Shown: piece after piece, positions 17,701-42,200 of the stretch
How positions within the stretch are numbered: the stretch's first letter is position 1
How the letters are laid out: the number at the start of each line of letters is the position of its first letter
Source: Candidatus Multivoradales bacterium
GTDB lineage: Bacteria; Acidobacteriota; Thermoanaerobaculia; Multivoradales; Multivoraceae
Direction of reading: 5' to 3'
DNA: 64,000 nt
NCBI GenBank assembly: GCA_965223325.1
Contig: CBDCWI010000002.1
Span: 2,528,001 to 2,592,000, forward strand
Translations under genes and position numbers: made by a program
Notes under the pieces: model-generated
The model's input: the letters and a program-made list of their open reading frames with translations, nothing else
Told to the model about the DNA's origin: nothing
Databases searched by the model: none

Positions 17701-17866
17701 CTGGTACCCCGTACCATTGGAACGGATAGTGGCTGAGTGGATGATCGTGCTCGATATCAAGGCGTCACGACGCAGGCATATTGGTGATCTGTCGAGGAGT
17801 GACAACGCAGAGATCGAGTGCGAGGAACGCTCAGACGCTGTGCGGTTCAATGGTACGGGGTACTAG
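17701..17866. mobile_element. MITE-like non-autonomous element (166 bp)
   Basis: Terminal inverted repeats CTGGTACCCCGTACCATTG (17701-17719) and CAATGGTACGGGGTACTAG (17848-17866), 18/19 match. Non-coding interior. The right end supplies the stop codon of the adjacent truncated kinase. Confidence 0.65.
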
Positions 17867-19068
17867 TGGAATGTCGAGAATCCTGGGGCGTGCGAGGGAA
17901 ACCTGGAGTAGATCACTCGCTGTCCGTCTGGTGAGACATCGAAGGAACTGACGAATCCCGGTGCACCAAAAGTCTGCGGGTTGCCGAGCGGGAAGCCGCG
18001 AAGAGCTTTTGCACGCTCTGCGGGTTCCGTCGAAACCCCACTTCCCTGCTGCGTTCGCTCGCCCGGTAACAGAGCGACAACGCCAACGGCAGCTACGACG
18101 GCCAGAGCAACGGCCAGTCCACGCTTCAGCCACTTCCCGCCCGCCTCCGGCGTGGCGACACCCCCTACCAGTCCCTCAGAAGCGGCGGCGCGAAGTGCCT
18201 CGCCCAGGGCTTTGGCGCCCGAGAACCGGTCTGCCGGGTCCTTCTCCAGACAACGATCGAGAATGGCCGAGATCGAGGCCGGCACGCCCTCGGCGAGCAA
18301 TACGGCCGAGCGAGGCGGATCGCGCAGCATCGCCGAAATGCGTTCCGCGGCGGTCTCGCCAGCGAATGGCGACATCCCGCACAGCAGCTCGAAGAAGACG
18401 ACGCCCAGGCTGAAAACATCTGAGCGCTGGTCGGCTGGTTCACCGCGCGCCTGCTCGGGCGACATGTAGGTGAGTGTGCCGAGAACCTGCCCCGACGCGG
18501 TGAGCTCAGAGCCTGCCGCCGCCCGAGTGGGTAGCTCGGACTGCGCCGGCGGCCGGGTCGCGAGCGGACTCTGCTTCGCCAACCCGAAGTCGAGCACCTT
18601 GACTCGATTCTCTCGGTTGAGCATGACGTTCGACGGCTTGAGGTCCCGATGGCAGATACCGCGCTCATGCGCGGCCCCGACCGCGTCGCAAAGCGGCAGC
18701 GCGATCTCGAGAAGCTCGTCGGGTCCGAGGGTCTCGCCCCTGCCGTCGAGCTCCTTCTTGACATCGAGCAGCGACCGTCCGTCGATGTACTCCATGACCA
18801 GGCACGTGGCGGCACGCGACGTCGACTCGATACCAAAGAGGGTCACGATGCCGGGATGATCGATTGACGCAAGAACCTTCGCTTCACGCTTGAACCGCTC
18901 GATCGCCTCCGGGCTGAGAGCCAGCTCGTCAGCCAGCTCCTTGAGTGCCACGCGCCGATCGAGGCGGGGATCGAGCGCCAGGTAGACGTCTCCCATGCCG
19001 CCACTTGCAAGGTGGCGTTCAACAACGTAGGGACCAAGCGCTGACCGTTCTCGAGCACTGCCCGGCAC
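17863..19068 (-). CDS. Ser/Thr protein kinase, C-terminally truncated (probable pseudogene)
   Basis: Complete kinase domain ([17 protein letters not shown]) and a TM, then only one PD40 blade (FDVSPDG) before a stop inside the MITE-like TIR. Confidence 0.85.
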
Positions 19069-21101: not shown

Positions 21102-21902
21102 ATGCCCAGTGCACTGTGCCTGGAGGGTTCGGTGGTCTCCGTGGTCTGGCTTCAGCTCCTGGCTGCGGTTCATGGTGAGGGGGGAGTTCCACCCGCAACG
21201 CTGGCAGTTTCTTTCCTTTCTGTCTGGCTTGCCTATGTCGGCGATCGCTTTCTCGACGCGCGCAAACCCGGCGAGCTCACCCGTCGCCATGTCCTCTGCC
21301 GGCGCTACCCACAAGTGGTCGCGATCTCCTGGCTTGTGGTTCTGGCTGCGGACCTCGCCCTGGCGCTCCGATTCCTACCCGCAACTGCGATCGCAAGCGG
21401 GCTCGCGCTCCTCGCGGTGGTGGTGACGTACTTCTTGTGGTTGCACAACACGCGAGGCGCCAGCGACAAAACGCGCCATCGCGAGGTCCTGTCGGACCTG
21501 GCGGTCGGTCCACTCCTGGCGCTTGGCCTCGCCTGGGCTCTTTCGACTGGCCCCGGTCTCTCACCAGGCGCCGTCGCGTCGCTACTCGGCTTCGCGCTCG
21601 TCGCCAGTCTCAACTGCCGAGCGCTGACCCTCTGGAGTACCCAACGAGGCCAGCGCCGGCTGTACCGGGCACTGCAGGCCACTGCCTGCGCAGCCTTCCT
21701 GGTGAGCGCAGGCCTGGCCCTCGTTGACTCCACCGCCAGCTGGACGACCGCCCTTCCCGCGGCGTGCCTGGGACTGAGCGCCGCCGCAATGGCCTCTGTT
21801 CACCTCCACCGCCAGCGCCTGGCTGCCGACGTGCGGCGCTTCGCTGTCGACGCTGCCATGCTTTCTCCACTCGCAGCGACTCTGACCCTCGCGCTGTTCT
21901 AG
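21102..21902 (+). CDS. Multi-pass membrane protein (UbiA-like, uncertain)
   Basis: About 8 hydrophobic segments, WLAY.GDRFLDA motif. Coupled to the methyltransferase. Start uncertain. Confidence 0.65.
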   Translation: MPSALCLEGSVVSVVWLQLLAAVHGEGGVPPATLAVSFLSVWLAYVGDRFLDARKPGELTRRHVLCRRYPQVVAISWLVVLAADLALALRFLPATAIASGLALLAVVVTYFLWLHNTRGASDKTRHREVLSDLAVGPLLALGLAWALSTGPGLSPGAVASLLGFALVASLNCRALTLWSTQRGQRRLYRALQATACAAFLVSAGLALVDSTASWTTALPAACLGLSAAAMASVHLHRQRLAADVRRFAVDAAMLSPLAATLTLALF

Positions 21903-23480: not shown

Positions 23481-26400
23481 TCAGGAAGGTCTGCCGGCGG
23501 GCCCATTCCCCTCATCGACGACGAGCTTCGGCATCGACTGGGTCTCAGTGGGCGGCGGCTCACCCATTTCGACACGGAGCGGCCCGTCGTAGGAGGTGGG
23601 GTCGAGCTCCGCGGCGATAAGGTCTCGCACTCCCAGGCGGGGCGTCTCTGCCTTCGAGTCGATGGCCACCCAACGACCACGACCGTACTCCTTGGCGAGA
23701 TAGAGCGCCCGGTCGGCGATCTTCACCGTATCTTCGAAGCCCAGGAGCTCCGGTTCATCAACAAAGAAGGGGAAGAACGCGCAGCCAACTGAACACCCGA
23801 GGTGAACCGGGCTTCCGTCTGCGGTTTCGAAGACATGGCCGCGAATCATCTGGATGATGCGGTTGGCGAACCCGGCAACCTCGCCGCGCTCGACTCGTCG
23901 AATCAGAAGCAGGAACTCATCCCCGCCCCACCGAATGGCGCTGTCGCCGTCCCGGCAAGCGTCGCGCAGCAGCTCGCCCACCTGGATCAGTGCCGCATCA
24001 CCAGCGTCATGCCCGAACGTATCGTTGAGCGGCTTGAAACCGTCGAGATCGATCATCAGGAGCAGAAAGTCGTGGAGATCTTCGGAACGCAGGCCGGAAG
24101 GAGCCTCGCCGTTGTCGCCGGATCCTGGTACTGCGGGCCCCTCATTGGGGGTTTGGGGGGGAGGTTCATCGAGCACCAGGGCGCCGCTATCCGACCGCTT
24201 CCTTCGGTAGTACCGCATCGCCCGGGTCAGCTCCTCGCGCAGGAAGCCAAGCACGTAGTGCCGATTGCGCAGACCCGTCAGAGCATCGGTAACCGAAACC
24301 TGCTGCAGACGCTCATTGCGCTCGGCGAGTTCCTCAGTCCGCAGGTCCACCTCCTCTTTGAGTCGCCGTGAGTACTCCGCTTCTCGGTGGAGCCTCTGGC
24401 GCACCAGGTGGACTGCGAGAACGATGGCGAGTAGAACCGCCAGCGCGTACAGGCAAAAGGCCCACCAACTCTTCCAGGGTGGAGGTTCGACCACGACACG
24501 CGCCGAGAGGCCATCCTCGGTCCAGGCGCCGTCGTTGTTCGATGCTCGCACCCTCAGGACGTAGTCGCCAGCCGGTAGGCTGGTGTAGGTCGCGCGATGA
24601 AAGGTACCGAGCTCGTTCCAGTCCTCGTCGAAGCCCTCTAGCTTGTAGGCAAACTGGTTCTCTTCCGGGGAGGTGAAGTCGAGCGCCGCAAAGTCGAAGG
24701 TCACGACCTTGTCCAGGTGATTGAGTTCGAGCGCCGCGTGCTGCGCCGCAAGAACGTCCTCGTGACGAAACTCGCCGTTTCGCGACACCGACGTAATCGC
24801 CAGTTGCGGGATGTGCCGGTTGTCGACGACCGCGGCGGGGCGAAAGACGTTCAGCCCCGCGACACCGCCGAGGTAGAGCCTCCCATCGGACCCGACATGA
24901 TGAGCACCGAAGTTGAACTCGGCACTCTGTAGACCGTGGCGCACCGAGTAGCGTTTGAACTCGCCCGTTTGATGGCGGAACCGGAACACACCGTTGTTGG
25001 TGCTCAGCCAGAGATCGCCAGCGTCGTCGGGGAGAATGGCGTAGACCATCTCGCTCGCCAGGCCCTCGTCGCGACCGAAGTTCTGGAACGCTGCCGAGGG
25101 GTTTCCGAAATCCTTGTACGGCAGAAGATCCAGGCCATTGTCGCCAGTTCCTACCCATAGCCCGTTGGCGTCCTGGTAGAGCGACCAGATGCGGTCACTT
25201 GCCAGGGCTCCGACGACATCGGGGTCGGCTCGATAGGCCGTGAACTCTTCGGTTGCCGGATCGAAACGGTTGATACCGCCGTCATCGGTGCCGACCCAGA
25301 GTGCGTCGTCGGTCTGCAAGAGCACCGTGACGCGATCACTCGAGAGCGAGTCCGGGTCGTTTGGATCTTGCCGGAAATGACGCGCAATCCCGGTCTCGGT
25401 ATCGAGGCTGTCGAGACCAGCTCCGAAGAGTCCGACCCAGGTTCGGTTGGGTTGGGCGCCGTGCTCGAGCGCAATGATCGAATTGCTCGCCAAGGTGCGG
25501 AGGTCATCTGGGTCATGCCGAAAGTGCTCAAATGTCGACTCGCCGGTTCGGCGGCGGTTCAATCCACCGCGGAAGGTTCCCGCCCAGAGATCTCCCTTGC
25601 GATCGACTAGCAGCGAGCCAATACGGTCTTCACTGATACTCGTCGGGTCTTGCGAGTCGTGTTTGAAGGTCGTCACCGAACCTGTTGCCGGATCGATCCG
25701 GTTGAGGCCCCCCATTGTTCCGACCCAGATGGTGCCGTCGGCCTCTTCGTCGATCGCCCAGATCGCGTCGTTCGAGAGGGCACGGTCGCCCTCTACCCCC
25801 GTGTGATAGTGCTCGAAAGTCACGGTCACCGGGTTCCAGAAACTCAGACCGGCACCGAGAGTACCGACCCAGAGAACGTCGCCGCGATCCTGAAACAGCG
25901 ACAACACGTAGTCGGTCGCCAGCCCGTCGGGAGATACGGTTCGCTGACGGATGTGTGAAAAGCCGCGGCCTTCTCCACGCCACTCGTTCAAGCCCCGCTC
26001 GGTGCCCACCCAGAGCGTCCCTTGTCGATCGGTCAACGCCGAGGTCACACTGTTCGACGTCAGCGAGCGCGGATCATCAGGATCATGGCGAAAGTGTTTG
26101 ACGTCTTGAACCCCTGGATCGAGACGGTCGAGACCTTGATCGTAGGTGGCAATCCAGAGACGCTGCGCTCCGTCGAGGTGAAGAGCACGCACCTGATTGC
26201 TGCTCAAGCTGGTTGGATCGGCCGGTTCATGGCGTCGCGAATCGAGCAGTGCTCCTTCAGCGTCGAGATGAAAGAGGCCATCACCGAAGGTGCCAATCCA
26301 GGCGCCACCATTGCCGTCGCCAACCAACGCGCGTACCGAACTGCTCGCCAGCGTGCTGGCCTCTTTGCCGGGGGCCCAGATGTCTCCTGTTGTGGGGTCG

Positions 26401-26888
26401 TAGCGCAGGATACCGGCGGTCTCGGTTCCGACCCACAACCGCCCTTCCCCATCGGGCAGGACCGCGCGAACCGGAAGGTTCTGATCGTCTGAGGTCAGTG
26501 CGTGGCGCGCGAAAGAGCCGGCGAACGGCTGCCAGACCGCGAGACCACCACGCGTACCAACCCACACTCGACCGTCTGAAGCCACAGCGAGCGACCAGAT
26601 CTGGTTGCTCGGCAGGCTGGTGACATCACCCGGTCCATGCCGATAGAGCCTGACTTCTTTGCCGTCGTACCGGTTGAGTCCATCTTCGGTCGCGATCCAC
26701 AGGAAACCGGCTTGATCCTGGACAACCTGGTTGACAGTTGTTTGCGAAAGGCCCTCTTCGAGTGACAAATGATGGAAGCGAATGGCCGGTCGCTGCCCAT
26801 ACACCGCCGCTGCGAGGCCGAGAACCAGGGCCACGTACAGAAAGGGCCGGGCGCGCCAGCGGCCACGTTGTGCCAGAAAACAACACAT
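23481..26888 (-). CDS. Membrane diguanylate cyclase with periplasmic Reg_prop beta-propellers and a Y_Y_Y domain
   Basis: Signal peptide, ~14 (D..G.)LWVGT..GL repeats, YKLEGFDEDW..ATYTSLPAGDY.LRVRASN, PPPW plus TM, TDALTGL.NR, IDLDGFK..ND..GH..GD, RDGD I-site, RWGGDEF. Confidence 0.95.
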   Translation of the reverse strand: MCCFLAQRGRWRARPFLYVALVLGLAAAVYGQRPAIRFHHLSLEEGLSQTTVNQVVQDQAGFLWIATEDGLNRYDGKEVRLYRHGPGDVTSLPSNQIWSLAVASDGRVWVGTRGGLAVWQPFAGSFARHALTSDDQNLPVRAVLPDGEGRLWVGTETAGILRYDPTTGDIWAPGKEASTLASSSVRALVGDGNGGAWIGTFGDGLFHLDAEGALLDSRRHEPADPTSLSSNQVRALHLDGAQRLWIATYDQGLDRLDPGVQDVKHFRHDPDDPRSLTSNSVTSALTDRQGTLWVGTERGLNEWRGEGRGFSHIRQRTVSPDGLATDYVLSLFQDRGDVLWVGTLGAGLSFWNPVTVTFEHYHTGVEGDRALSNDAIWAIDEEADGTIWVGTMGGLNRIDPATGSVTTFKHDSQDPTSISEDRIGSLLVDRKGDLWAGTFRGGLNRRRTGESTFEHFRHDPDDLRTLASNSIIALEHGAQPNRTWVGLFGAGLDSLDTETGIARHFRQDPNDPDSLSSDRVTVLLQTDDALWVGTDDGGINRFDPATEEFTAYRADPDVVGALASDRIWSLYQDANGLWVGTGDNGLDLLPYKDFGNPSAAFQNFGRDEGLASEMVYAILPDDAGDLWLSTNNGVFRFRHQTGEFKRYSVRHGLQSAEFNFGAHHVGSDGRLYLGGVAGLNVFRPAAVVDNRHIPQLAITSVSRNGEFRHEDVLAAQHAALELNHLDKVVTFDFAALDFTSPEENQFAYKLEGFDEDWNELGTFHRATYTSLPAGDYVLRVRASNNDGAWTEDGLSARVVVEPPPWKSWWAFCLYALAVLLAIVLAVHLVRQRLHREAEYSRRLKEEVDLRTEELAERNERLQQVSVTDALTGLRNRHYVLGFLREELTRAMRYYRRKRSDSGALVLDEPPPQTPNEGPAVPGSGDNGEAPSGLRSEDLHDFLLLMIDLDGFKPLNDTFGHDAGDAALIQVGELLRDACRDGDSAIRWGGDEFLLLIRRVERGEVAGFANRIIQMIRGHVFETADGSPVHLGCSVGCAFFPFFVDEPELLGFEDTVKIADRALYLAKEYGRGRWVAIDSKAETPRLGVRDLIAAELDPTSYDGPLRVEMGEPPPTETQSMPKLVVDEGNGPAGRPS

Positions 26889-27141
26889 TGCAATATTTCG
26901 AATTTCTCGCGATACCCCGGGTGGGGGCAGACGCCAAGAACTTTACTATAAATCCCAGAAAGCAAGGTTTCAGTCTTCAGCCCTCAAGAGTACCGACGGA
27001 AGGGATTCATACAACCAGAACACGTCGAGCGGAGGTATACTAGAAATTGTTTCATAAGGTGGCAAACCATTTGCTTAATGTTTCGGTGGCTTCGCAACGC
27101 CACGCCGACTCTGAACCTCTACTTGTCCACGGGACCTCATC

Positions 27142-30100
27142 ATGCGTGCCCACCGTCTGACCATCTTGATCCTCGCCGGATGTCTCGCGACATTCGCCGG
27201 TGCGCAATCGCCTCCCGTCACCGCGGTGACCGACGGGCCACAACCTCCGACGGCAGCAGGGCCTGAACACGACGCCCTAAGCCAGCGGTACATCGTGCTG
27301 GCTCCCGACAGTCGCACCGCCGAACATTTCGTCGAAGCTGTAGGCGGTAGGACCAGTCACGTCTTTCGCGTCCTGCGAGGAGTCGGAGCGGACCTGACGC
27401 TCGCACAAACCGAAGAGCTCTCCAGGCTTCCCGGGTTTCGCGTCATCGCCGACCGCCAGGTCCATGCACAAGCTCTCCGCAGCCAGAACGTCCGTATGAC
27501 CCGCCAGATCGCCTACGGTGCCGATGACGCCGAAGAGAAGCTCTCGACCGGCGGCGTCGACCTCGGAAGTTCCGACCTCGAACTGGCCACCGACTACTCC
27601 GATCAGATGATCGGGCTGCGCTTCCAGGACGTTCAGATTCCGCAGGGCGCCACAATCACCAACGCCTACCTCGAGTTCGAGTCCGACAACGCCAACGACA
27701 CAAACGTAAGCCTCGAGATTCGCGCCCAGGCCGCCGACAACGCGACCGCGTTTCAAAGCGCCAGGCACAACCTGACAGACCGCCCGACCACTGAGAGCGT
27801 CATTCCGTGGACTCCGGAGCCCTGGGTCGAGTCGGGCCTTCTCTACACGTCTCCGGCCGTCACGCCCATCGTTCAGGAAGTCGTCGACCGCGGTGCATGG
27901 CAGGCTGGTAACTCGCTGGTGGTGCTGATCTCGGGCCACGGCATTCGCCGCGCTCAGTCCTTCGAAGGCAAGCAATCGGGCGCCACTACCCTGGTGGTCG
28001 ACTACGAATCACCCGCAGAAGAGACGACTGGTGGATTCGGTGGCGGTCCAGGGGGCGGTTTCGGCGACGAACCGCTGGCGACTGGCGAGACTCACACGAT
28101 CGCCGCCTACATTCTGCGCGGTGCCGATGACGTCGAAGAGAACCTCTCGACTGGTGAGGTGCACATCAACAGCAGTGATCTCGAGATGAGCTTCGATGGG
28201 TCGCGCCAACAGCTCGTCGGCCTGCGCTTCGATGATCTCCCGATTCCTGCAGGCGCCAAGATCGACATGGCGTGGCTCGAGTTTCGCGCCGACGAAACCA
28301 ACTCGGCCCCGGCCTCGGTCCTCATTCATGCCGAAGCCACCGCCGACTCCTGGAGCTTCGAAGACCTGGACTACGCAGTATCGATGCGGCCGAAGAGCAC
28401 CACCTCCAAGACCTGGACTCCGGTGCCCTGGCCCGAGGTGGGAGCCGCCTACCCGAGTGAAGACATCGGACCGATCATCCAGGAGATCGTCAGCCGGAAA
28501 GGCTGGCGGGCCGGCAACGCCTTGACTCTCCTCCTCACCGGGTCGGGCCGGCGAACCGCCGAGTCGTTCGATGGCGGCGACACACCTCCGATCCTGCGCG
28601 TTCAGTACCAGGGCGTCGCCCCGACCATGGCGGACGTCGCTGCGGGCGCCTGCGGCAAAGTGCCGGGGACTGGGGCTAGCGACCTGCGAGTCGTCGCCCT
28701 CGACTTCGACGGCACCACCGAAATCGAGGTCAAGGTCAGAGACGGTCGACCCCACGCACCGCTCCTGGTGGACGGCAAGATGGTCGGCTGCCTCGACAAG
28801 TACGGTGACCTCGAGACCAAGCACTTCGCGTTTCATATCGACGCCTGCCACGTCACCGTGAGTGACGGGGCGACTCACCTCGAAGTCGAGGCCGAAGACT
28901 GCGTTGCCTGGCGCGACACCTTCTACCCCACCCTGGTCGATGCCGCTCGGCTCCACCAGCAGGGGACGCTCGGCCGGACTTCGATTGCCTTTGTCGACAC
29001 CGGAATCGCCAACGCACACGACTGGGGCCAGATTTCCTACGACGTGGTCGCCTTCTACGATGCGATCGCCGACCGCACGCACTCTGATCAAGGTGCGTTT
29101 GACGACGCAGGTCACGGCAGCCACATCGCGGCGGTCGCTGCCGGTCGCGGCGTGACCGCCGAAGGGCTCTACAACGCGGTTGCCCCCGCCGCTCAAATCG
29201 TTGCGGTGCGCGCCTTCGACGCCGATGGCTCGGGCTCCTACCTCGACGTCATCCGCGGGATCGAGTGGACGATTCAAAACGCCAGCCGCTACGGAATTCG
29301 GGTTCTCAATCTCTCTTTCAGCGCACCGGTGCAGTCGTTCTACTGGGACGATCCCCTCAACATGGCGGTGATGGCTGCCTGGGACGCCGGCCTGGTGGTC
29401 GTTGCCTCAGCTGGCAACCACGGTCCCGACCCAATGACCATCGGCGTGCCCGGCAACGTTCCCTACGTCATCACGGTAGGTGCGATCAGTGACGCCTACA
29501 CCCCGGACGATTCCTCAGACGACTTCCTGACCACCTTCTCGGCGGCCGGCCCGACCTTCGAGCGCTTCGTCAAGCCCGATGTCGTCGCCCCGGGTGGCCA
29601 CATGCTCGGCCTGATGGACTTCCAGGACACGCTCGCCAGGACCCACCCCGAGTTCCACGACGGACCGCGCGGCGTGCCCTACTTCACCATGTCGGGTACC
29701 TCGCAGGCAGCGGCAGTCGTCAGTGGCATCGCGGCGCTCATGCTCGACGACGAACCCACCCTGTCGCCAGACGACGTCAAGTGTCGGCTCATGGCCACGG
29801 CGCGACCGGCCCTCGCCGGCGACGGCAGCCTCGCCTACAGTGTCTTCCAGCAGGGAGCGGGGTTGGTCAACGCCCTCGATGCCGTTCGTACGAGCGTCAC
29901 CGGCTGCGCCAACCAGGGACTCAACATCGGCCACGATCTCTCGGGCGCCCAGCACTACGGTGGCCTCGCCAACCAGGACGAGTACGGCAACTACGTCCTC
30001 GAGGGCGTCCAGGGCTTCGCATGGGATCAGGGCTTTGCCTGGGATCAAGGCTTCGCATGGGATCAAGGCTTCGCCTGGGACCAGGGCTTCGCATGGGACC

Positions 30101-30222
30101 AGGGCTTCGCATGGGATCAAGGCTTCGCATGGGACCAGGGCTTCGCATGGGACCAGGGCTTCCTGTGGAGCGAGAGTCTCAGCGAGCCGGCGTCGATCAA
30201 CACCTGGGTGCCGCAGGAATAG
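27142..30222 (+). CDS. Secreted S8 (subtilisin-like) peptidase with two inserted DD(A/V)EE beta-sandwich domains and C-terminal QGFAWD repeats
   Basis: Signal peptide, I9-like prodomain, catalytic FVDTG / GHGSH / SAGN / SGTSQA. Confidence 0.93.
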   Translation: MRAHRLTILILAGCLATFAGAQSPPVTAVTDGPQPPTAAGPEHDALSQRYIVLAPDSRTAEHFVEAVGGRTSHVFRVLRGVGADLTLAQTEELSRLPGFRVIADRQVHAQALRSQNVRMTRQIAYGADDAEEKLSTGGVDLGSSDLELATDYSDQMIGLRFQDVQIPQGATITNAYLEFESDNANDTNVSLEIRAQAADNATAFQSARHNLTDRPTTESVIPWTPEPWVESGLLYTSPAVTPIVQEVVDRGAWQAGNSLVVLISGHGIRRAQSFEGKQSGATTLVVDYESPAEETTGGFGGGPGGGFGDEPLATGETHTIAAYILRGADDVEENLSTGEVHINSSDLEMSFDGSRQQLVGLRFDDLPIPAGAKIDMAWLEFRADETNSAPASVLIHAEATADSWSFEDLDYAVSMRPKSTTSKTWTPVPWPEVGAAYPSEDIGPIIQEIVSRKGWRAGNALTLLLTGSGRRTAESFDGGDTPPILRVQYQGVAPTMADVAAGACGKVPGTGASDLRVVALDFDGTTEIEVKVRDGRPHAPLLVDGKMVGCLDKYGDLETKHFAFHIDACHVTVSDGATHLEVEAEDCVAWRDTFYPTLVDAARLHQQGTLGRTSIAFVDTGIANAHDWGQISYDVVAFYDAIADRTHSDQGAFDDAGHGSHIAAVAAGRGVTAEGLYNAVAPAAQIVAVRAFDADGSGSYLDVIRGIEWTIQNASRYGIRVLNLSFSAPVQSFYWDDPLNMAVMAAWDAGLVVVASAGNHGPDPMTIGVPGNVPYVITVGAISDAYTPDDSSDDFLTTFSAAGPTFERFVKPDVVAPGGHMLGLMDFQDTLARTHPEFHDGPRGVPYFTMSGTSQAAAVVSGIAALMLDDEPTLSPDDVKCRLMATARPALAGDGSLAYSVFQQGAGLVNALDAVRTSVTGCANQGLNIGHDLSGAQHYGGLANQDEYGNYVLEGVQGFAWDQGFAWDQGFAWDQGFAWDQGFAWDQGFAWDQGFAWDQGFAWDQGFLWSESLSEPASINTWVPQE
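30010..30171 (+). repeat. Coding tandem repeat: 9 x 18 bp (8 x QGFAWD + QGFLWS)
   Basis: Units CA(G/A)GGCTT(C/T)GC(A/C)TGGGA(T/C) are contiguous with no spacers. Differences among the first 8 units are all at third codon positions. Confidence 0.97.
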
Positions 30223-32482: not shown

Positions 32483-32587
32483 GGGCGACAGAGGCGGCCA
32501 TTGCGACTGGCCTAAGCAGCTGCAGCTCGCTTGAAGGGAGGATCCTTCTCGCAACGTTTGGCGCTCGAGGAGCATCATGCTTCTTGT

Positions 32588-33193
32588 ATGCCAGCGAAGA
32601 CGACCAGCCGCCCGCACGACCAGCGGCACAGCCCAACGGCCAACGGGCTGATCGAGAAGATCGCGGCCGGAGATCGGCGCGCGGAGCAAGACCTGTACAA
32701 CCTCCTGGTGCGGCGGGTCATTGCCCTCGTCTATCGCATGACGGGAAACCGCGAAGCGACCTGGGACCTCACTCAGGAGACCTTCCTGGCGGTCTACCGC
32801 GCCGCCCCCACCTGGCAGGGGCGCGGCTCCGCCGAGGCCTGGGTCTTGCGCATCGCTGGCAACCTGGCGCGGCAGGCGTATCGCTCCGACGATCGCCGTC
32901 GACGTCTGGTCGAAGGCTACGCTCGTTCGACACACCCTGATCGGACCGCTGGCGGAAGCCTGCAGGCGGTCGACCGCCTGGTTGTTCGAGAGGCCCTGGC
33001 GCAACTACCCGCGGCGCTTCGACAAGTGGTGGTTCTGGCGTTGGTCGACGGCCTGAGCCACGAAGAGATCGCCAGCGGCCTCGATATCGCTGTCGGCACC
33101 TCGCGGGCGCGGCTCTCCCGCGGCCGCGACGCCCTCCGCCGCATGCTCTCGCAGACTTCCGACCCACTCCCGACAGGAGATGACAATGAGTGA
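32588..33193 (+). CDS. ECF RNA polymerase sigma factor
   Basis: GDRRA..DLY, DLTQETFL, WVLRIA.N, L...LR.VVVL...GLSHEEIA..L.IAVGT.RARLSRGR. Start uncertain (32531/32588). Confidence 0.9.
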   Translation: MPAKTTSRPHDQRHSPTANGLIEKIAAGDRRAEQDLYNLLVRRVIALVYRMTGNREATWDLTQETFLAVYRAAPTWQGRGSAEAWVLRIAGNLARQAYRSDDRRRRLVEGYARSTHPDRTAGGSLQAVDRLVVREALAQLPAALRQVVVLALVDGLSHEEIASGLDIAVGTSRARLSRGRDALRRMLSQTSDPLPTGDDNE

Positions 33194-33806
33194 GCGAAGG
33201 ATCGATGAACGCATTCGCAACCATGCGGAGCCGGTTCCAGAGTTCGACGTCAGAGCACTCGGCGAGCAGCTCGAAGAGCGTCGAAGCGCCGAACTTTTCG
33301 AGGGCCCTGGCGCTCGCAGCACGACCACGTCTCCGCCGCGAGGGTGGCGTCTCCTTCTCCACGCCGCGGCGCTGGTGATGGTCTTCTCCCTGGGCGGAGT
33401 CGTCGGCTCGACACTCGAGAACAGGAAGGTGCCCAGCGAGGAACCCCACGGCCAAACTGCAGGCGACAGAGTCTCGTTTTCCCCACCGACCGACGTGGCG
33501 CTCGAAATCCAGGCTTCGGGAACTGCGCTCCAAGAGCTCCTCGGCGGTGTCCCTGCCAGCGAACTCGACCTGCAACACCGTCAGCGAGTCGAAGAAGCCG
33601 TCTTCGCATTGATGCACGGTCTCGCCCACGAAACGAGTCGGCTGGGGGGGGCTTCACCTCACCCCCTCTCGCAACGACTCGAGGAGCTGATCGCGCGTCA
33701 TCGTTTTGCCGCTGCAGGTCTTGCGGCCGCGGCTCCGAACGTGCCTGGCACAACGAGCACCAACCCGGATGCGGGAATCGCTGGTAAGGCCAGAGGTGGT
33801 TCGTGA
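33186..33806 (+). CDS. Putative single-pass anti-sigma factor
   Basis: Overlaps the sigma stop, AGGAG RBS, one TM (LLLHAAALVMVFSLGGVVG). Confidence 0.6.
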   Translation: MSERRIDERIRNHAEPVPEFDVRALGEQLEERRSAELFEGPGARSTTTSPPRGWRLLLHAAALVMVFSLGGVVGSTLENRKVPSEEPHGQTAGDRVSFSPPTDVALEIQASGTALQELLGGVPASELDLQHRQRVEEAVFALMHGLAHETSRLGGASPHPLSQRLEELIARHRFAAAGLAAAAPNVPGTTSTNPDAGIAGKARGGS

Positions 33807-36277: not shown

Positions 36278-39200
36278 CTACTGGTCCTCCGGCAGAAGTA
36301 GAGCCGGGTCGCCCAGAATGTTGTAGGTCTCAAAGGGGTTGACCGACGAGAACTGTCCCGAGACGCCCGCGAAGGCGCCGATCACGGCGTCACCCAGGGT
36401 CACCGCCTTTCCTTTCCAGACGGCCTGGAACAGGGCGCGGTCGAGCGCTGCGCCTTGACGGTTGATCGACACGCCGCTCGGCGAGAACACCGCGACGGCC
36501 CCACCTTCAGGTGCGAGAACCAGCTCGGTGCCAAGGGCGGGATAGCCGGGAACTTCAAAGCGCCCTGCGACACAGGTCATCGCCGAGAAGATTGTTCCCG
36601 AGCGTTCGGCGCCGAGCAGGCTCACGTCAGCACTGGTCAAAAGACCCTCTGCTGCGAAGCGGTCGACGCCACCGTGGCCTATGTAGTTGACCCAGAAGTT
36701 CGTCGCCTCGAGCTCCTCGAAAAGAGCCCCTCGGGCGTCAGAGAGAGACAGGTCCGAGAGGTAGACGCGTTCGATGTTGGTTGAGGGCTCGACCAACCGC
36801 ACCAGGGTCTCGCTGTCCGCTGGGAAATCGCCGACGCTGGCGTCGGTGTTGTCGGCCAGCAGGATCACCTGGCCGCGTTCACCCCTGGACTCGAAGGCCT
36901 CGAGCTTCTCGCGGTAGGCGTCGAGCTCGGCCATGGTGTGGACCGGGATGCGACCGACCGCGATCTCGGGCACACCGTCGTCCTCGCCCGCAACGTCACC
37001 CATCGCGAGATCTCCGGCAAAGAGACCGTTGCGCCGCACCGCGCGCAGAAGCGGCGGCATTGGCTCGAGACCCGTACCGAGCACGTCACGGTAGTCGTAG
37101 GTTCCGGCGCCGATGAGGACCGCGTAGCGCGGCTTGTTGTGCCAGTTGTGGTACGCCGCAGCAAGGAAGTCTCGAATGGCACGCGGGTCCCGGTCGCCGT
37201 GACTGAACTGGCCGTAGATGTCTTCGACATCGAAGACCAGGGTTCCCATTTCGCGCCGGTCACGTGTTCTGGCGAGGCGCTCGGCCGCCGGGCGTAGCGC
37301 GGCCGGTGTGATGACGATGTAGTCGGCACCTCCAAGGCGCAGGAGGTCCTTCTCTTCGCGCGGCTGGAAGACCTCTGGAGTGAGCACAGCGCTGGATGCC
37401 ACCGCCAGGTACTCGCCTCCCGGTTCCGGTCCGAAGAGGACTCGATACCTACCCGAGGAAAGATGGGGATTCGTAGCAAGTGCTCGCGCTCGCAGGGGGT
37501 CGCTCACCTCGAAGAGCATTACGTCGCCCTTGGTGAACCCGCCAACTGCAAGACTCGACGAGCTCTCGGCACGGAAGCGCAGGCGGTCTTCATGGGCGGC
37601 CAGGTGACGAGGATAGGTCAGATCAAAACTGTTGATGTAGAAGATGCTCTTGTCGGCCTCGCCGTCGAGCAAACCGGTGACCTGAATCTGATTGGCGCCG
37701 TCCTCGAGCATGCTGGACGGGAAGTCGAATCCGAACGTCCGGCGGCCACGACCCTTCCAGGCGTAGTCACCGAGGTAGGCGTCGTTGAGGTAGAGCTCGA
37801 TGTGATGCTCACGGTCAACACCGGTGCTACTGGCAGAGAAGACCTCGAGGTCGAGCCTTGCGGTCCCGCCGACGTTGGCCAGCTGCTCCACTAAGACGTC
37901 ATAGCTGTGACTGCCCGCCACCGGGTTGCCAGCCACCACTGCTGACCAGTACCAGAAGTCCTCGAGCGCGTGGTTCGCCGCCGCCGTTGCCCCCAGCACG
38001 TCCTCTTCGAAGTGAACCGTCGATTGGAAGTCGGTCACACTCACCAGGCCGGTGGTCGCCGGCAACACCTTCTGCATGAGCACACCGTTGCCGATGCGCA
38101 ACTGGTAGTTCGTCGTGTCGGAGAAGATCGAGCTCGACGGGGTCGCGACGAAGTAGAAGCCCTGGCTGTCGGCTGCCGGGTGAATGGCAACCAGATCGCC
38201 CGCCCGCGTCAGCTCGAAACGCCCCTCGGCAAGGTAGGACTCGAGGTGGCGGCCAAGACGCCCGAGATGAGGTCTCAACTCGTCGAGCGCGACGAAGACC
38301 AGACCCGCGCCATCGGGATGATCGACACGCACGCCGATATCGAAGATCGCGTTCTCGAAGCTCTCGAAGGGAGCAATGAGCGGTCTCGTCGGCCGGCGGC
38401 CAGCGCCCTGCCTGGCGTTCTGTTCGAGGGATTCGAGACCACGGTCGTCGCCCCGCTCCCGGTTCACACCACGTGCCGGCCGGCGGACATGCGGCTCGCG
38501 CGCGAGCGCTTGCATCGCCTTCTCGAGCGGTTGGCGGTTTCCCGGGGGTTCGAGGGTTGCAAAGAAGGGCCCGTGGACCCGCTCGGCACCCGAAGCTTCG
38601 ATCTCGACCACCGCGTAGTAGCTGCCGTCGGCCTCTGGCCAGTGGTTGGCCGCCATACGGTAGTGACCGCCCTGCGGTTCGCCGGCTGAAGGAACCACAT
38701 CGTCGGCCAGGTGGACCCACTCCTCGGTGTCGGTCTTCCACTGCATGAGGTAGAAGGCAACCGTACCCACCTCAGACGCCGTCGACCACTCCACCACCGG
38801 CACGCCGCCGTCGTTGTAGACGCGGAAGTCGGACGTCAATGCCATGGTGACGGTGTCGAAGCCGAAGTCGTTGTTCGGGTCGTCGAAGCCAGTGCCGACG
38901 AAGACCGAGCGTTCGAGGTTGTCGGTGGTCAGCGCGGTCGAGGCGGGCAAGGTCGACGGCTCGACCTCGAGCACGTAGGGGCCACCAGACAGCAGGCCGA
39001 ACTCGAAGTCGCCATTGCTGTCGGTGGTGACCGAACGCACCAGGGGATCGGTCGAGTCGATGACCCCGTCGTTGTCCTGATCGAAGTACAGGTTGACGGT
39101 GGCGTTCTGCCAGCCGGTCTCCGTCGGGTGGTAGAGGCCGTCGCTGTTGTCGTCGAGGAAGACGGTGCCCAGAATGGTGTTCGTTCCGGCACCGTTCGAC

Positions 39201-42200
39201 TGCAGGAGACGGCAGTCCGAGCCCTCGTAGTCACCGCCGATGCCGAAGGGCTCACCGGCGTCTTCCGTCGGGTCGGTCGGATGGGTCGCCTCACCGGTCG
39301 TGAAGTCGATCTTCCACAGTCGATCGTCGGTCGATGAACTACCGGAATTACCGGTCGTGCCCCACATCACGCCGAGGTGGTCGAAACCGGTCCCTTCCAT
39401 ATCGTCGACCCGGTCGCCATTGACATCGACGATGTCGACGCAGCTCAGGAAGCGACCCGTCGGAACTCCGTTGGAGTCGAGCTCGAGCTCGCCGAGCTGC
39501 TGGTTGTTCCCACCCTGGTCGACCTGGACGAAGAATCTGCCATCCTCGGAGATCGCAATGTCGTCCATGTCGTGTTCGTCACAGACGGCACCACCGTTGT
39601 CGCCGTCGAAGTCGGGAATCAGGTAGTCGACTCCTGGGCCGAAGACATCTGGGATATGTGCGCCGGTGCTGTAGTCGATCTTGAAAAGCGCGTCAGAGTC
39701 CGACGACCGGCGGAACGTCCCCCAGAGTTCGAGGCTCTGCGGATGGAAGGCAAGGCCATCGACATCATCGAAGAGGAGCTCGCCGTCCGAGCCGCCACCT
39801 GTTCCAAACTCTCCGATCGAGGTGTAGGCGGCCGTCGTCAGGTTGAGCGTGCCAAGTGTCCCCGTTGAGCCTTCATCATCGGCGGCGTAGAGAAGCGGGC
39901 CAGTTGCCGACGGCCCGAAGGTGATCGCTTCAATCGATACAGCACCCGAGTTGCCGATCTCGGTGACTGTGTGAGGCGAGCTGCGGCCCATCGAAACCAG
40001 CTTTGAACCGCTGTCTGAGAGCGCCCAGCAGAGATCCTCGACGACCGTCGGATCCTGAATGGTGGTTCCCCCGCTGAAGGAGTTGTTGGGGGCATAGGGG
40101 TCGATCGCCCGGGTCGCTGAGGTCACCGAGGCGCTGTTGGTGATCGTCCCGGCGGTGCTGGGAGCGGTCACCTTGATCGTAATCTCCGGTGCCCAGCCGA
40201 CGGAGAGGCTGGAGGCGGTGCAGGTCACCACCAGGCTGCTCTCGGAGCACGACCAGCCCGTACCGGTGGCACTCACATACGTCACACCCGAAGGAAGGGT
40301 GTCGGTAACCGTCGTGGTCGCGGGAATCGCCGGACCGTAGTTGATCACCCTCAGGGTGTAGGTGATCGTGCCGCTGAGCTCGACCGGATCTGGACCGTCG
40401 ATGACCACGATGCCGAGATCGACATCGGAGGGGGTTCCAACGGTGGTGTTCTCGAAGTCGGCGTTGTTGAGCTCGTTCGTGTCTGGTTCATCAGCGCTGA
40501 TGTTCGCCTTGTTGACGATCACCTGATCGCTGGCCGGGGCCGTGACCACAACGGAGATTGCGGGCCCAACACCGACCGCCAACGTGGCACGAGTACAAGT
40601 CACGGTGCGCGCAACCTGACCACATGCCCAGCCCGTACCGGTGGCACTGACGAAAGTTGCCGCCGCCGGAAGGGTGTCAATCACCACCGGGTTGGTGGCG
40701 GCATTCGGCCCGAGGTTCTCAGGGGTCACCGTGTAGGTCACCGTTCCGCTGGTCGCCACTGGGTCGGGGCTGTCCGAAATCGCGACGGTGAGATCTGCAG
40801 TCGGGCCCGAGGACACCGTCGTTGACATCGTGGCATTGTTGTTGCCACCCACCGGGTCGGGGTTGTCGGCGCTGACCGTTCCGCTGCCGTTCAAGGTCGT
40901 CGGCGAGGCCGGCGCTGTGACATTGATGTTGATCACTGGAGCTGCCGAGGAGCCGGCGATCGTCGCGCGTGTACAGGTCACCACACCACTCGCCTGGTTA
41001 CAGGTCCAACCGACGCCCGCGGCACTGTTAAAGGTCACACCCGAAGGCAGAGTGACCGAAACGACAACGTTGTCGCCCTGGATGGTCGAGTTGTTGGTCA
41101 CCGTGGCACCGTAGATGAGCGTGCTCGAGACGACGACTGGATCTGGCGTATCGGTGACTGCAAGAGAGAGATCGACGTTGGTACCGACATTGACCGTCGT
41201 GGTCTCGGAGTCGCTGTCATTCGCCGACACGGGATCGGGCTCGTCGGCCGAGATCGTCGCAGTGTTGTTGACCACGGTCGGTGCGGCAGGAGCCGTGACT
41301 GTGATGGTGATGACCGGCGCGGTCTCTTCCGGAGCGATCGACGAGCGCGTGCAGGTCACGGTGCCGGACGATTCGCTGCACGACCAGCCGGTCCCACTAG
41401 CGGAGACATAGCTGACGGCAGCCGAAAGCGTGTTCGTCACCACCACGTTGTTGGCGGTGTCGGGACCCAGGTTGTTGGCCGTCAGCGTGTAGACGAGGGT
41501 GCCACTCGCAGCGACCGGATCAGGTGAATCGGCGATGCTGATTGCTACGTCGGCGCCTTCGAGGCGCACCTTGCCGTAGGACTCGTACGTGTCGAGGGCT
41601 TTGCTCCCCGTCGAGTCGTAGAGCCGGAAACAGTAGGTGGCGCCGTCAGTGGCGTTGCTGGTCGCCTTCACCGCGTACTCGATCTCGGTGAACCGATCGA
41701 TGGCGAGAGTGATCGCACTGGTGGTATTGCCTGCGTCCTTGACCTCGCCGGCAACGAAGGTCGTCGACTCGTCCGTCAAGCCCGGATCGATGTTGGTGGT
41801 CGGATCACCGTCGGTGAGATGAGTGGATCCCGTGATCTGCCAGTCGCCGCTGGTGTCGGTGGGCACATCGACGTAGGCCCCGCCGCTACAGGTCGTGGTT
41901 TCGGCAACTTGTAGTTTGTAGGCGACGCCGCCCGATCCCAGCGTGCCCTCGTTCGAGACCTCAAAGCGAATGCGACGCGTCGAGTTCTTGGGCACCTCGA
42001 CGATCTCGGCATCCTCAGCGGCAGCCGAGGTAGCGCCGGCACCGCCGACGTTGGTCTTCTGCGCCACCAGCGTCCTCTCGTGCATGACGGCGGTCCCGCC
42101 TTCGGTGCGCCACTTCACCTCGATCGTTTGACCCGCTCCGAGCCCGGAGACCACGGCATGCGTCATCATGTTCGTCGAGGTGTTAGGAATCGAACCCTCG

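Follow-up and report, generated by a model that had tools for sequence, protein, structure and literature searches.

Periplasmic sensors built of Reg_prop and Y_Y_Y modules are best known from the hybrid two-component systems of Bacteroides, where sensors of this fold are placed beside the degradative genes to which they respond. LchP of Lysobacter enzymogenes (PMC6182147) and GdpX2/GdpX3 of Xanthomonas oryzae (PMC6637768), the closest studied proteins of the same overall kind as the one described here, are enzymes of cyclic diguanosine monophosphate (c-di-GMP) metabolism with Reg_prop and Y_Y_Y modules, and their signal is stated to be unknown in the available parts of the two articles. A sensor of this type is encoded in a stretch of 64,000 nucleotides from Candidatus Multivoradales bacterium, a member of Acidobacteriota (assembly GCA_965223325.1, contig CBDCWI010000002.1, positions 2,528,001 to 2,592,000; hereafter, the window), where the gene for a membrane diguanylate cyclase is divergent from that for a subtilisin-type (S8) protease, whose C-terminal tail contains nine Trp-hexapeptide units. 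To judge from sequences and gene neighbourhoods, the S8 protease and the Reg_prop/Y_Y_Y sensor genes are very probably functionally coupled, because their adjacency is frequent and position-specific, occurs in three phyla and in two gene orders, and persists while the outputs of the sensor change. The window pair would be one instance of a conserved, protease-coupled c-di-GMP sensing module, which is apparently undescribed; nothing on the tail or on the S8/Reg_prop pairing was found in the literature searched, which comprised open-access PubMed Central and bioRxiv. The features of the pair, in window coordinates, are the following.

23481..26888, minus strand: membrane diguanylate cyclase gene, 1135 amino acids (open reading frame, ORF; Pfam Reg_prop, Y_Y_Y, GGDEF; NCBIfam TIGR00254)
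23664..24296, minus strand: GGDEF domain, residues about 865-1075 (Pfam, NCBIfam, sequence reading)
24399..24473, minus strand: second hydrophobic, putative transmembrane segment, residues about 806-830 (read from the translation)
24483..26795, minus strand: predicted periplasmic sensor region, residues 32-802, with Reg_prop repeats and Y_Y_Y (Pfam)
24489..24680, minus strand: Y_Y_Y domain (PF07495), residues 737-800 (Pfam)
26889..27141, no strand: divergent intergenic spacer, 253 bp, G+C fraction 0.49 versus 0.64 for the whole window
27142..30222, plus strand: S8 (subtilisin-type) protease precursor gene, 1026 amino acids (ORF, Pfam)
27142..27204, plus strand: signal-peptide-like segment, residues 1-21 (read from the translation)
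27205..28977, plus strand: N-terminal extension of about 590 amino acids, with a propeptide-like stretch and then two internally similar modules, each of about 170 amino acids
28978..29820, plus strand: S8 catalytic domain, residues 613-893 (Pfam, alignment)
29821..30009, plus strand: family-specific segment after the catalytic domain (...FQQGAG..CANQGL..DL.G..H.GG.A...G.Y..; near-invariant alignment columns)
30010..30171, plus strand: nine hexapeptide units, QGFAWD eight times and QGFLWS once (sequence, Tandem Repeats Finder)
30172..30219, plus strand: conserved C-terminal end ESLSEPASINTWVPQE (family alignment)

The likeness to the Bacteroides hybrid systems lies in the Reg_prop and Y_Y_Y modules enclosed between two membrane segments and in the position of the sensor gene beside genes for secreted degradative enzymes. 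The outputs differ, being kinase-REC-AraC there and GGDEF, GGDEF-EAL or hybrid kinase-REC-Hpt here, and so does the partner, which is a glycan-degrading system there and a protease here; the window protein is not a member of that group. With LchP and GdpX2/GdpX3, as described in the available parts of the two papers, the window cyclase shares the coupling of a periplasmic Reg_prop/Y_Y_Y sensor to c-di-GMP turnover domains; according to the same text LchP differs in having also PAS and EAL domains. A protease partner is not mentioned in those parts for any of these enzymes, whose gene neighbourhoods were not compared.

Relatives of the pair were collected by one scan of a species-representative genome collection (one genome per species), with an alignment of the S8 and tail region as query. 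The scan gave 634 matching stretches, of which 599 were confirmed as relatives; the best 80 yielded 74 loci (labelled L0xx), with flanks of up to 10 kb on each side of the S8 match where the contig allows, and much less in many loci. The loci come mostly from metagenome bins, many of them on short contigs, so that the number of loci counted as having no sensor is an upper bound; their ORFs were called mechanically, several with over-extended starts, and their assignment to taxon classes is a grouping of our own, L040 having been placed in Acidobacteriota afterwards. A sequence-only reading of the window had proposed, as a check, to look for an enrichment of Reg_prop/Y_Y_Y c-di-GMP sensors beside repeat-tailed S8 proteases, and the result was positive: the sensor part of the cyclase (residues 1-830) was matched by tblastn in 37 of the 74 loci, at no more than 600 bp from the nearest S8-family ORF in 26 of them, at 600-3000 bp in 11, and farther away in none. 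The other window neighbours searched in the same way, namely a dehalogenase-like hydrolase, an FAA hydrolase, a methyltransferase, the ORF at 21102, DUF2959, DUF1330 and an extracytoplasmic function (ECF) sigma factor, were each matched in 0 of 74. When adjacent, the sensor lies almost always downstream of the protease gene and in the same orientation, most of the gaps being of 16-110 bp; an upstream divergent sensor, as in the window but with another gene in between, occurs in L010, L045, L064, L070 and L074, and the wider gaps are filled by another S8 paralogue or by a c-di-GMP gene.

The sensor is present in 28 of the 37 loci from Gammaproteobacteria/Pseudomonadota, in 7 of 22 from Acidobacteriota (8 of 23 once L040 is placed there), in the only one from Gemmatimonadota (1/1), in one of two from other taxa and in none of the 12 from Chloroflexota. 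Among the carriers of the cassette are the cultured strains Peristeroidobacter soli JW-3 (L044), P. agariperforans KA5-B (L068) and Thiocystis violacea DSM 208 (L010). If only those loci are considered in which the S8 array has 3 kb or more of flank on each side, the sensor is present in 23 of 39, and within Gammaproteobacteria in 19 of 21. A FastTree phylogeny of S8 catalytic domains was computed from 74 sequences, those of the window and of 73 loci (L022 was left out for masked residues), and the presence of the sensor (38/74) was mapped on it as a label. The label changes 16 times, at least five of these changes being forced by well-supported branches, while shuffled labels need 25.1 changes on average and none of 500 shuffles was as low as 16. 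One clade rich in Steroidobacterales has the sensor in 20 of its 22 members and the remaining sensors are scattered over the tree; thus, given the number of changes and those forced among them, the pairing is distributed among several lineages and was not inherited as a single block.

What the sensor is fused to varies. Of 30 sensor ORFs scanned with Pfam, 28 carry Reg_prop and Y_Y_Y, or Reg_prop alone in one case (L043), the other two being the halves of a split sensor in L003. The output is a GGDEF domain in six (L018, L032, L037, L052, L050, L010), GGDEF-EAL in one (L074) and HisKA-HATPase-REC, with or without Hpt, in 21, counting the L003 halves as one, some of them also with PAS domains; no output domain was found by Pfam at E<=1e-5 in the L062 sensor, and an AraC domain occurs only in an unrelated neighbour, in L062. 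In the window, the membrane segment is followed by GGDEF alone, and neither histidine kinase nor receiver nor AraC domain was detected by Pfam and NCBIfam. Since outputs and gene order change and the sensor module stays, the periplasmic sensor module is the constant partner of the protease.

Loci of Steroidobacterales type have a characteristic order, consisting of a protein of 533-575 amino acids with a weak GGDEF match and an EAL domain, the S8 protease with tail, the sensor hybrid kinase and a REC-GGDEF-EAL regulator; a divergent variant of the cassette has the same genes. The EAL protein lies between the S8 gene and its neighbours in six of these loci, and the regulator follows the sensor in four loci and stands between S8 and sensor in L050 and L058. 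By its sequence, the EAL protein upstream is probably a degenerate member of the GGDEF-EAL type: it has no GGDEF motif and, in six of seven cases, no E[AVIGL]LxR motif (regular expression). The possibility that it is LapD-like was considered and rejected, the LapD model giving 18.8 and 22.4 bits in two of five proteins scanned, versus a cutoff of 1020, and no hydrophobic segments being present in the N-termini examined. In the loci checked, c-di-GMP turnover thus appears as the recurrent destination of the cassette, of which the fused GGDEF of the window is the shortest version. Clustering of all ORFs of the 74 loci reported as recurrent neighbours only sensors, c-di-GMP genes and further S8 genes, and no conserved modifying enzyme.

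As a separate observation, in Chloroflexota, where no Reg_prop sensor was found, a Ser/Thr kinase-AAA-TPR protein of about 1166 amino acids recurs near the gene for the tailed S8 protease in five loci (L021, 12996-16496, minus strand, with relatives in L011, L016, L027 and L038); a GAF histidine kinase also recurs in five loci, one of them, L062, from a Pseudoalteromonas. Either protein may be an alternative regulator.

The sequence-only reading had described the cyclase of the window as a membrane enzyme with intact GGDEF and RxxD sites and a periplasmic part made of a double beta-propeller and a Y_Y_Y module, and the domain analysis agrees with both points. Pfam matched Reg_prop (PF07494) with E 1e-53 and Y_Y_Y at residues 737-800, and the GGDEF domain was recognized by PF00990 at residues 939-1071 (106.3 bits, cutoff 23.8) as well as by TIGR00254 of NCBIfam (116.8 bits, cutoff 37.4). 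The segment RDGDSAIRWGGDEF, residues 979-992, contains the intact active-site motif (GGDEF at 988), preceded with five residues in between by RDGD at 979, which is the spacing of an RxxD I-site. By profile and motif, the cyclase belongs to the GGDEF family, and c-di-GMP synthesis is predicted. The propeller region is bracketed by an N-terminal hydrophobic segment and by a second one at residues 806-830, and the part between the two reads as periplasmic; around the second segment, P804, W805, A810 and Y814 are invariant in an alignment of 27 sensors. Hydrophobic segments, signal peptide and the insertion described next are readings of the translations by eye, not predictor output. Between the first helix and the first strand of the GGDEF domain there is a Pro/Gly-rich insertion of about 45 amino acids (residues about 895-940, window 23900-24150, minus strand), and the Pfam match does not begin before profile position 31. 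Relatives of the sensor are very numerous, 7503 of 8000 candidates scored having matched at E<=1e-3. As for the spacer that separates the two genes, the earlier description of an AT-rich divergent region of about 250 bp was accurate; on its minus strand there are two sigma-70-like matches, which are consensus matches only.

The partner gene product had been read as a secreted subtilisin with an intact triad, and the evidence is consistent with this. Its N-terminus, MRAHRLTILILAGCLATFAGAQ, resembles a Sec signal peptide, and Peptidase_S8 (PF00082) was matched over residues 613-893 with 158.1 bits (cutoff 21.8, E 3.9e-46); D619, H658 and S854, together with the oxyanion N759, fall in invariant columns of a 42-sequence alignment. 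The catalytic domain was modelled confidently by AlphaFold2, and the family-specific segment following it had predicted local distance difference test (pLDDT) values mostly of 62-97. The closest solved catalytic domains are 9ues_B and 3afg_A ('Subtilisin-like serine protease'), with E about 1e-50; these are presumably subtilisins of the Tk-SP type. The match covers residues 24-325 of a query that starts at residue 590 of the window protein and ends before the tail; in the solved Tk-SP enzyme a folded C-terminal domain presumably takes the place of the Trp-hexapeptide tail.

The N-terminal extension, whose two modules span residues of about 115-290 and 320-480, is missing from most members of the family, many of which have about 570-620 amino acids within a range of 462-1300 for S8 lengths. 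For this extension Pfam at E<=5 gave nothing besides one match at 0.09, NCBIfam gave a weak DNRLRE match below its cutoff, and comparison of the 589 N-terminal residues with PDB gave a sole match, to an 81-residue 'Protease' chain, at E 0.54 over residues 33-103. No Pfam I9 match to an I9-type propeptide was found in the window protease.

The most peculiar part of the protease is its tail. As the sequence-only reading had noticed, QGFAWD is repeated eight times (residues 957-1004) and is followed by QGFLWS and then by ESLSEPASINTWVPQE; the array can also be read as GFAWDQ in a W-centred register, and Tandem Repeats Finder described it as an 18-bp unit in 8.6 copies (30009..30162, 89% matches). 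A homologue search of a large protein collection with residues 590-1026 gave 2232 matches at E<=1e-3 among 8000 candidates scored. Among the 120 best of these, 108 show four or more W-W spacings of exactly six residues close to the C-terminus, and 106 have a terminal W[VIA]x[QNHPE][EQ], the exceptions having mostly 7- or 12-residue periods or being truncated. A family set was made of 108 S8 proteins, the window protein and 107 from the related loci, dropping those with masked residues or with alignments of 350 amino acids or less. At least five hexapeptide units are present in 106 of them, with a median of 9 units per protein (quartiles 8-10), and 95 of the 108 end in the W[VIA]x[QNHPE][EQ] motif, the conserved end being ...SINxWVxQE. 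Within the unit, W never varies, G occupies position 1 in 91 of 106 proteins and Y or F position 2 in 101, while positions 3, 5 and 6 vary between proteins (entropy 1.8-2.5 bits) and agree within a protein (0.84-0.85). Across the family there are 62 different majority hexapeptides, and at least 80% of the units are identical in 39 of the 106 proteins.

The tail is predicted to be disordered and accessible. In the S8 context AlphaFold2 gave it pLDDT values of 22-44, and 22-25 over most of its length (blocks 371-420 of the model), and when modelled alone it had a pLDDT of 40.7 and no secondary structure. A folded tail, such as a beta-helix or solenoid, was considered and discarded, no fold and no strands being obtained in either model. 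No Pfam model (to E<=5) and no NCBIfam model covers the tail; in particular, Pfam at E<=5 showed no match to PF00132, the hexapeptide repeat of left-handed beta-helices, and sortase-type tags, the C-terminal domain of type IX secretion and autotransporter barrels had no Pfam or NCBIfam match on it. The protein ends in a polar ...WVPQE, without a hydrophobic stretch. Atlas matches to the tail are short hypothetical clusters, in some of which 19-36% of the members carry PF00132 Hexapep, a lead only.

In addition, hardly any proteins other than S8 proteases have the tail. A profile built from 35 tails was searched against 1.84 billion representative proteins, and the best 150 of 321 matches at E<=1e-3 were examined: 10 were already annotated as S8 by precomputed Pfam, 60 of the 63 others of at least 280 amino acids that were scanned carry Peptidase_S8, and the 77 shorter ones are mostly C-terminal S8 fragments. 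The three exceptions are a phage-like protein with a hexapeptide beta-helix and two unassigned proteins. Similarly, all Trp-hexapeptide arrays of the 74 loci are in S8-family ORFs, except one at a contig end and two antisense artefacts.

Some variants of the tail deserve mention on their own. Pseudoalteromonas members have seven-residue units (GGFIWRD), for example in L062 (9656-11368, plus strand), and the longest homologues, of 1100-1195 amino acids, have twelve-residue units (...N.GYIWNL); proteins P0042, P0059, P0001, P0003 and P0004 are, with L062, examples of variant periods. P0240, of only 100 amino acids, has a signal-peptide-like start followed directly by AFIWSD-type units and ...GLSEPAAIDHRVEQE, and resembles a stand-alone secreted tail. 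P0244 (281 amino acids) combines a lipoprotein-like start with NGLxWS units and a Cys-rich domain, and P0173 (1704 amino acids) has an S8 domain and the tail motif together with an N-terminal PQQ_2/BamB-type beta-propeller, not of Reg_prop type, and immunoglobulin-like domains.

The DNA of the repeats indicates how the units have evolved. The eight identical units of the window are written in five DNA versions, with 11 differences from the consensus among them, all synonymous, and the five non-synonymous differences of the array are all in the ninth unit, QGFLWS. In L009, 10 identical GYLWSD units have nine DNA versions, in L021 seven units have seven and in L010 eight have seven; only synonymous differences are found in L010 and L021 (13 each) and in L023 and L073 (12 each), although switches between serine codon families enter the codon count as non-synonymous, so that the non-synonymous figure is too high for some arrays whose peptides are identical. 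Among copies of six common units that are identical as peptides, DNA identity amounts to 80-88% within a protein, to 77-85% for paralogues sharing a locus and to 77-87% for different loci, the comparison being a relative one that is not set against a codon-usage expectation. Since synonymous sites differ as much within a protein as between loci, neither recent slippage nor gene conversion has left a sign in the repeats, and it is the peptide that is kept identical.

More than one S8-family ORF is present in 21 loci, with eight in a row in L007, six in L058 and five in L030; some of the S8 ORFs in L017 and L022 are fragments. In tandem arrays (L007, 1-15130; also L030, L058, L015 and L003) paralogues with 52-68% identity in the catalytic domain share nearly the same unit. 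At 55-65% catalytic identity, there are 1.02 mismatches in 6 unit positions for paralogues from the same locus (identical in 12 of 42 pairs), while for proteins from different loci there are 2.90 (identical in 18 of 1095 pairs), and at 30-45% catalytic identity the mismatches are 0.93 within a locus versus 2.45 between loci. Long stasis of the unit within a lineage, combined with different units between lineages, is the pattern expected of a specific partner or of homotypic pairing.

A second S8 subfamily, 37-43% identical in the catalytic domain, bears the same hexapeptide arrays and ends in ...DPL...L.L.DD, not in ...WVxQE (L014, L030, L040), the L058 member ending differently. Since this subfamily shares the repeats and differs in the end, repeats and end piece are separable. 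Its members are located as follows.

L014, 11872-16223: second-subfamily S8 protein
L030, 1-1620 and 5385-7799: second-subfamily S8 proteins
L040, 11158-13029: second-subfamily S8 protein
L058, 5450-7153: second-subfamily S8 protein

These properties lead to the reading that is preferred here. The protease would be exported, and its flexible, aromatic-rich tail would be presented to the periplasmic propellers of the neighbouring sensor, either as an intact, multivalent whole or in the form of short peptides that the protease itself excises; in response, the sensor would set the activity of its cyclase, hence c-di-GMP. In this way the cell would read the amount and the activity of its own protease, or of that of its kin, and couple the read-out to the decision between an attached, biofilm state and a free-living one, with the lineage-specific unit giving specificity to the signal. 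The excision of units from a flexible aromatic-rich segment is chemically reasonable in view of the specificity of subtilisins. The tail is favoured as the signal because this would explain at once its occurrence on S8 proteases, its predicted disorder, the selection on its peptide sequence, its lineage-specific units and the conserved sensor next door. That the tail, intact or excised, is what the sensor reads has a probability somewhat short of even. A self-reporting enzyme, in which the active protease releases about nine lineage-specific hexapeptides and the adjacent double-propeller receptor counts them to set c-di-GMP, is a bolder version of the same proposal, and an unlikely one.

A direct link between tail and sensor was looked for in the co-variation of the two. 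Distances between units correlated with distances between ectodomains when catalytic distance was controlled (partial Mantel r 0.56, 27 pairs, 0 of 2000 permutations as high). A number of results and precedents, however, weigh against the tail as signal. Within the Steroidobacterales-type group the correlation falls to 0.06 (13 pairs, 756 of 2000 permutations as high) and in the remaining 14 pairs to 0.28 (72 of 2000), so that most of the co-variation signal is the split between two clades; the units of Steroidobacterales are similar, not identical (GYTWSK and GYTWSR, K and R alternating at position 6). In 37 of the 74 loci, including all 12 from Chloroflexota, there is no such sensor within the available flanks, and it is absent as well from 16 of the 39 whose flanks reach 3 kb or more on each side, with tail and terminal motif kept; the tail must therefore also have a role independent of an adjacent sensor, and its most conserved part, the ...WVxQE end, is unlikely to exist for this sensor. 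The 68 within-locus pairs behind the comparison of paralogues are not independent, L007 alone accounting for 21. No fusion of S8 with Reg_prop was found among 13 longer homologues, a negative that counts for little. Sensors of this fold in Bacteroides are known to bind glycan fragments. In the part of the LchP article that was available (PMC6182147), unsaturated disaccharides are the predicted ligand of the fold. A complex prediction of ectodomain 32-802 (27-row alignment) with an 83-residue tail (42-row alignment) had a score of 0.00 and a mark of 0.32, which is no answer in either direction, and nothing is drawn from it. Of the peptide-signalling idea put forward by the sequence-only reading, the synteny, the tie of the tail to S8, its disorder, the identity of units at the peptide level and their locus-specific nature stand in its favour, while the half of the loci that lack the sensor and the non-identical units of Steroidobacterales do not fit it.

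The same evidence has to be weighed for the other ways in which the pair could be explained. That two common families merely happen to adjoin, the repeat being a product of slippage, is barely credible: both families are indeed large (2232 and 7503 matches, each among 8000 scored) and half of the loci lack the pairing, but the sensor lies within 600 bp in 26 of 74 loci and the nearest one is never beyond 3 kb despite flanks of up to 10 kb, the other window neighbours are at 0 of 74, the pairing extends to three phyla and two gene orders, and synonymous divergence within a protein equals that between genomes, unlike after recent slippage. A more substantial alternative, held to be unlikely but with an appreciable chance of being correct, is that the sensor detects peptides or glycopeptides freed by the protease from external protein and moves c-di-GMP up or down, with the effect that cells would settle at sites of food supply. 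Polysaccharide-utilisation loci with their hybrid sensors follow this logic. The tail would then act only on behalf of the protease, be it as a pro-region at the C-terminus, as a temporary inhibitor or as an arm targeting substrate or particles. Such sensing of products explains the synteny equally well; tandem protease genes, up to eight in L007 and more than one in 21 loci, fit a nutritional enzyme family, the retention of tail and end without a nearby sensor is expected of a role in cis, and a tail found almost only on S8 also suits a role within the enzyme. It leaves unexplained why all six positions of the unit stay identical while synonymous sites drift, and why diverged paralogues of one locus share the unit; moreover, the output is a second messenger and not a DNA-binding domain, and the Steroidobacterales-type protease gene is flanked by an EAL protein and by a sensor kinase plus REC-GGDEF-EAL, company that would be unusual for a purely nutritional enzyme.

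Two further explanations are each regarded as quite improbable. According to the first of these, the sensor responds to an unrelated cue, for instance a glycan, and the protease belongs to the c-di-GMP circuit as effector or passenger, active for instance in matrix remodelling or dispersal, its gene lying nearby for co-expression. Control of a protease by c-di-GMP is known from LapD/LapG, and the operon-like spacing of 16-110 bp in most adjacent cases, the c-di-GMP turnover genes and probable degenerate GGDEF-EAL protein within the cassettes, and the great size of the sensor family, with many outputs and probably many ligands, are all in line with co-regulation. Yet the periplasmic module is constant while outputs and order change, which suggests that the link depends on the ectodomain and not on the messenger; the EAL protein upstream does not resemble LapD, and the peculiar evolution of the tail would remain unaccounted for. 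The tail could otherwise be adhesive or self-associating, its aromatic stickers binding other tails, matrix or particles, so that the proteases of one cell line assemble and the link to the sensor is secondary; paralogues would share a unit because they co-assemble. Predicted disorder, a W recurring every six residues and preceded, two positions earlier, by F or Y in 101 of 106 proteins, the narrowly kept number of units (median 9, quartiles 8-10), the unit common to tandem paralogues, including the subfamily at 37-43% identity, and the persistence of the pattern in Chloroflexota loci without a nearby sensor are what such a tail would show. A general adhesive module, however, would be expected on other secreted enzymes too, whereas 60 of the 63 longer matches scanned are S8, and the conserved neighbour has no explanation. 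An adhesive tail is compatible with the sensing of digestion products as well as with the protease being an output or passenger of the circuit.

Several known systems offer partial parallels. Multi-copy peptide precursors cut by S8 proteases include yeast alpha-factor with Kex2, cyanobactin PatE with PatA-PatG, and repeat-core peptides of fungi and plants; they have in common with the window protein the tandem copies of a short peptide and an S8-family processing protease, while precursor and protease are separate there and form one polypeptide here, where peptide release is hypothetical. The PatA/PatG protease model matched the window protease at E 3.2e-12, far below its cutoff. A cluster of the ribosomally synthesised and post-translationally modified peptide type was considered and set aside, there being no conserved modifying enzyme nearby; nine units fused to S8 are a resemblance only. 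Signals made by proteases or consisting of peptides are PopC and the C-signal of Myxococcus and the Phr/Rap and Agr peptides of Firmicutes. The likeness to these is in the idea of a secreted protease that makes an extracellular signal for a membrane sensor of the same species, and the variation of the unit between lineages recalls pherotypes; receptors and organisation of the precursors are different, the output here is c-di-GMP, and action of the tail between cells is hypothetical. LapD/LapG resembles the cassette in that a protease and c-di-GMP proteins are encoded together, a probable degenerate GGDEF-EAL protein adjoining the protease gene in Steroidobacterales-type loci; the protease is a LapG-type cysteine protease there and an S8 enzyme here, where the EAL protein has no visible membrane segments. 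Sensor-coupled hydrolase loci and peptide signalling systems are both known kinds, and there is a real chance that the pair represents a new kind if the tail is a signal.

Some other genes in the surroundings of the pair were also noticed. At 36278-47509 (minus strand), 6 kb from the S8 gene, a 3743-amino-acid ORF has six DUF11 repeat matches and a C-terminal Peptidase_C25 (gingipain-type) domain, and is putatively another surface protease, of very large size. Also present are two genes for Ser/Thr protein kinases, of which one has PD40 repeats, and a sigma/anti-sigma pair of the ECF type, with coordinates given jointly as 10102-12960 (minus strand), 17863-19068 (minus strand) and 32531-33806 (plus strand); the two kinases were not among the neighbours searched for in the 74 loci.

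The c-di-GMP enzymes with Reg_prop/Y_Y_Y sensors are widespread and, as the available parts of the papers on LchP and GdpX2/GdpX3 indicate, their signals are unknown even for these. The conserved, presumably co-transcribed neighbour described here offers concrete candidates for the ligand: one defined hexapeptide, the whole tail with its roughly 70 residues, or what the protease releases by digestion. The tail is notable in itself, being nearly exclusive to S8 proteases and covered by no family model, with units that are selected as peptides and specific for the lineage. If the enzyme were self-reporting, it would provide the first ligand for the orphan Reg_prop/Y_Y_Y c-di-GMP sensors and would be a Gram-negative form of peptide-based quorum, kin or enzyme-activity sensing, in which precursor and processing protease are one polypeptide. 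More generally, if the tail is the signal, bacteria would have a new means of coupling a public good that is secreted to a read-out that stays private. In the opposite case the tail would still have to be explained, and the cassette would still link extracellular proteolysis to the decision to attach or to swim in abundant bacteria of sediment and soil, such as Steroidobacterales, Woeseiaceae and Thermoanaerobaculia.

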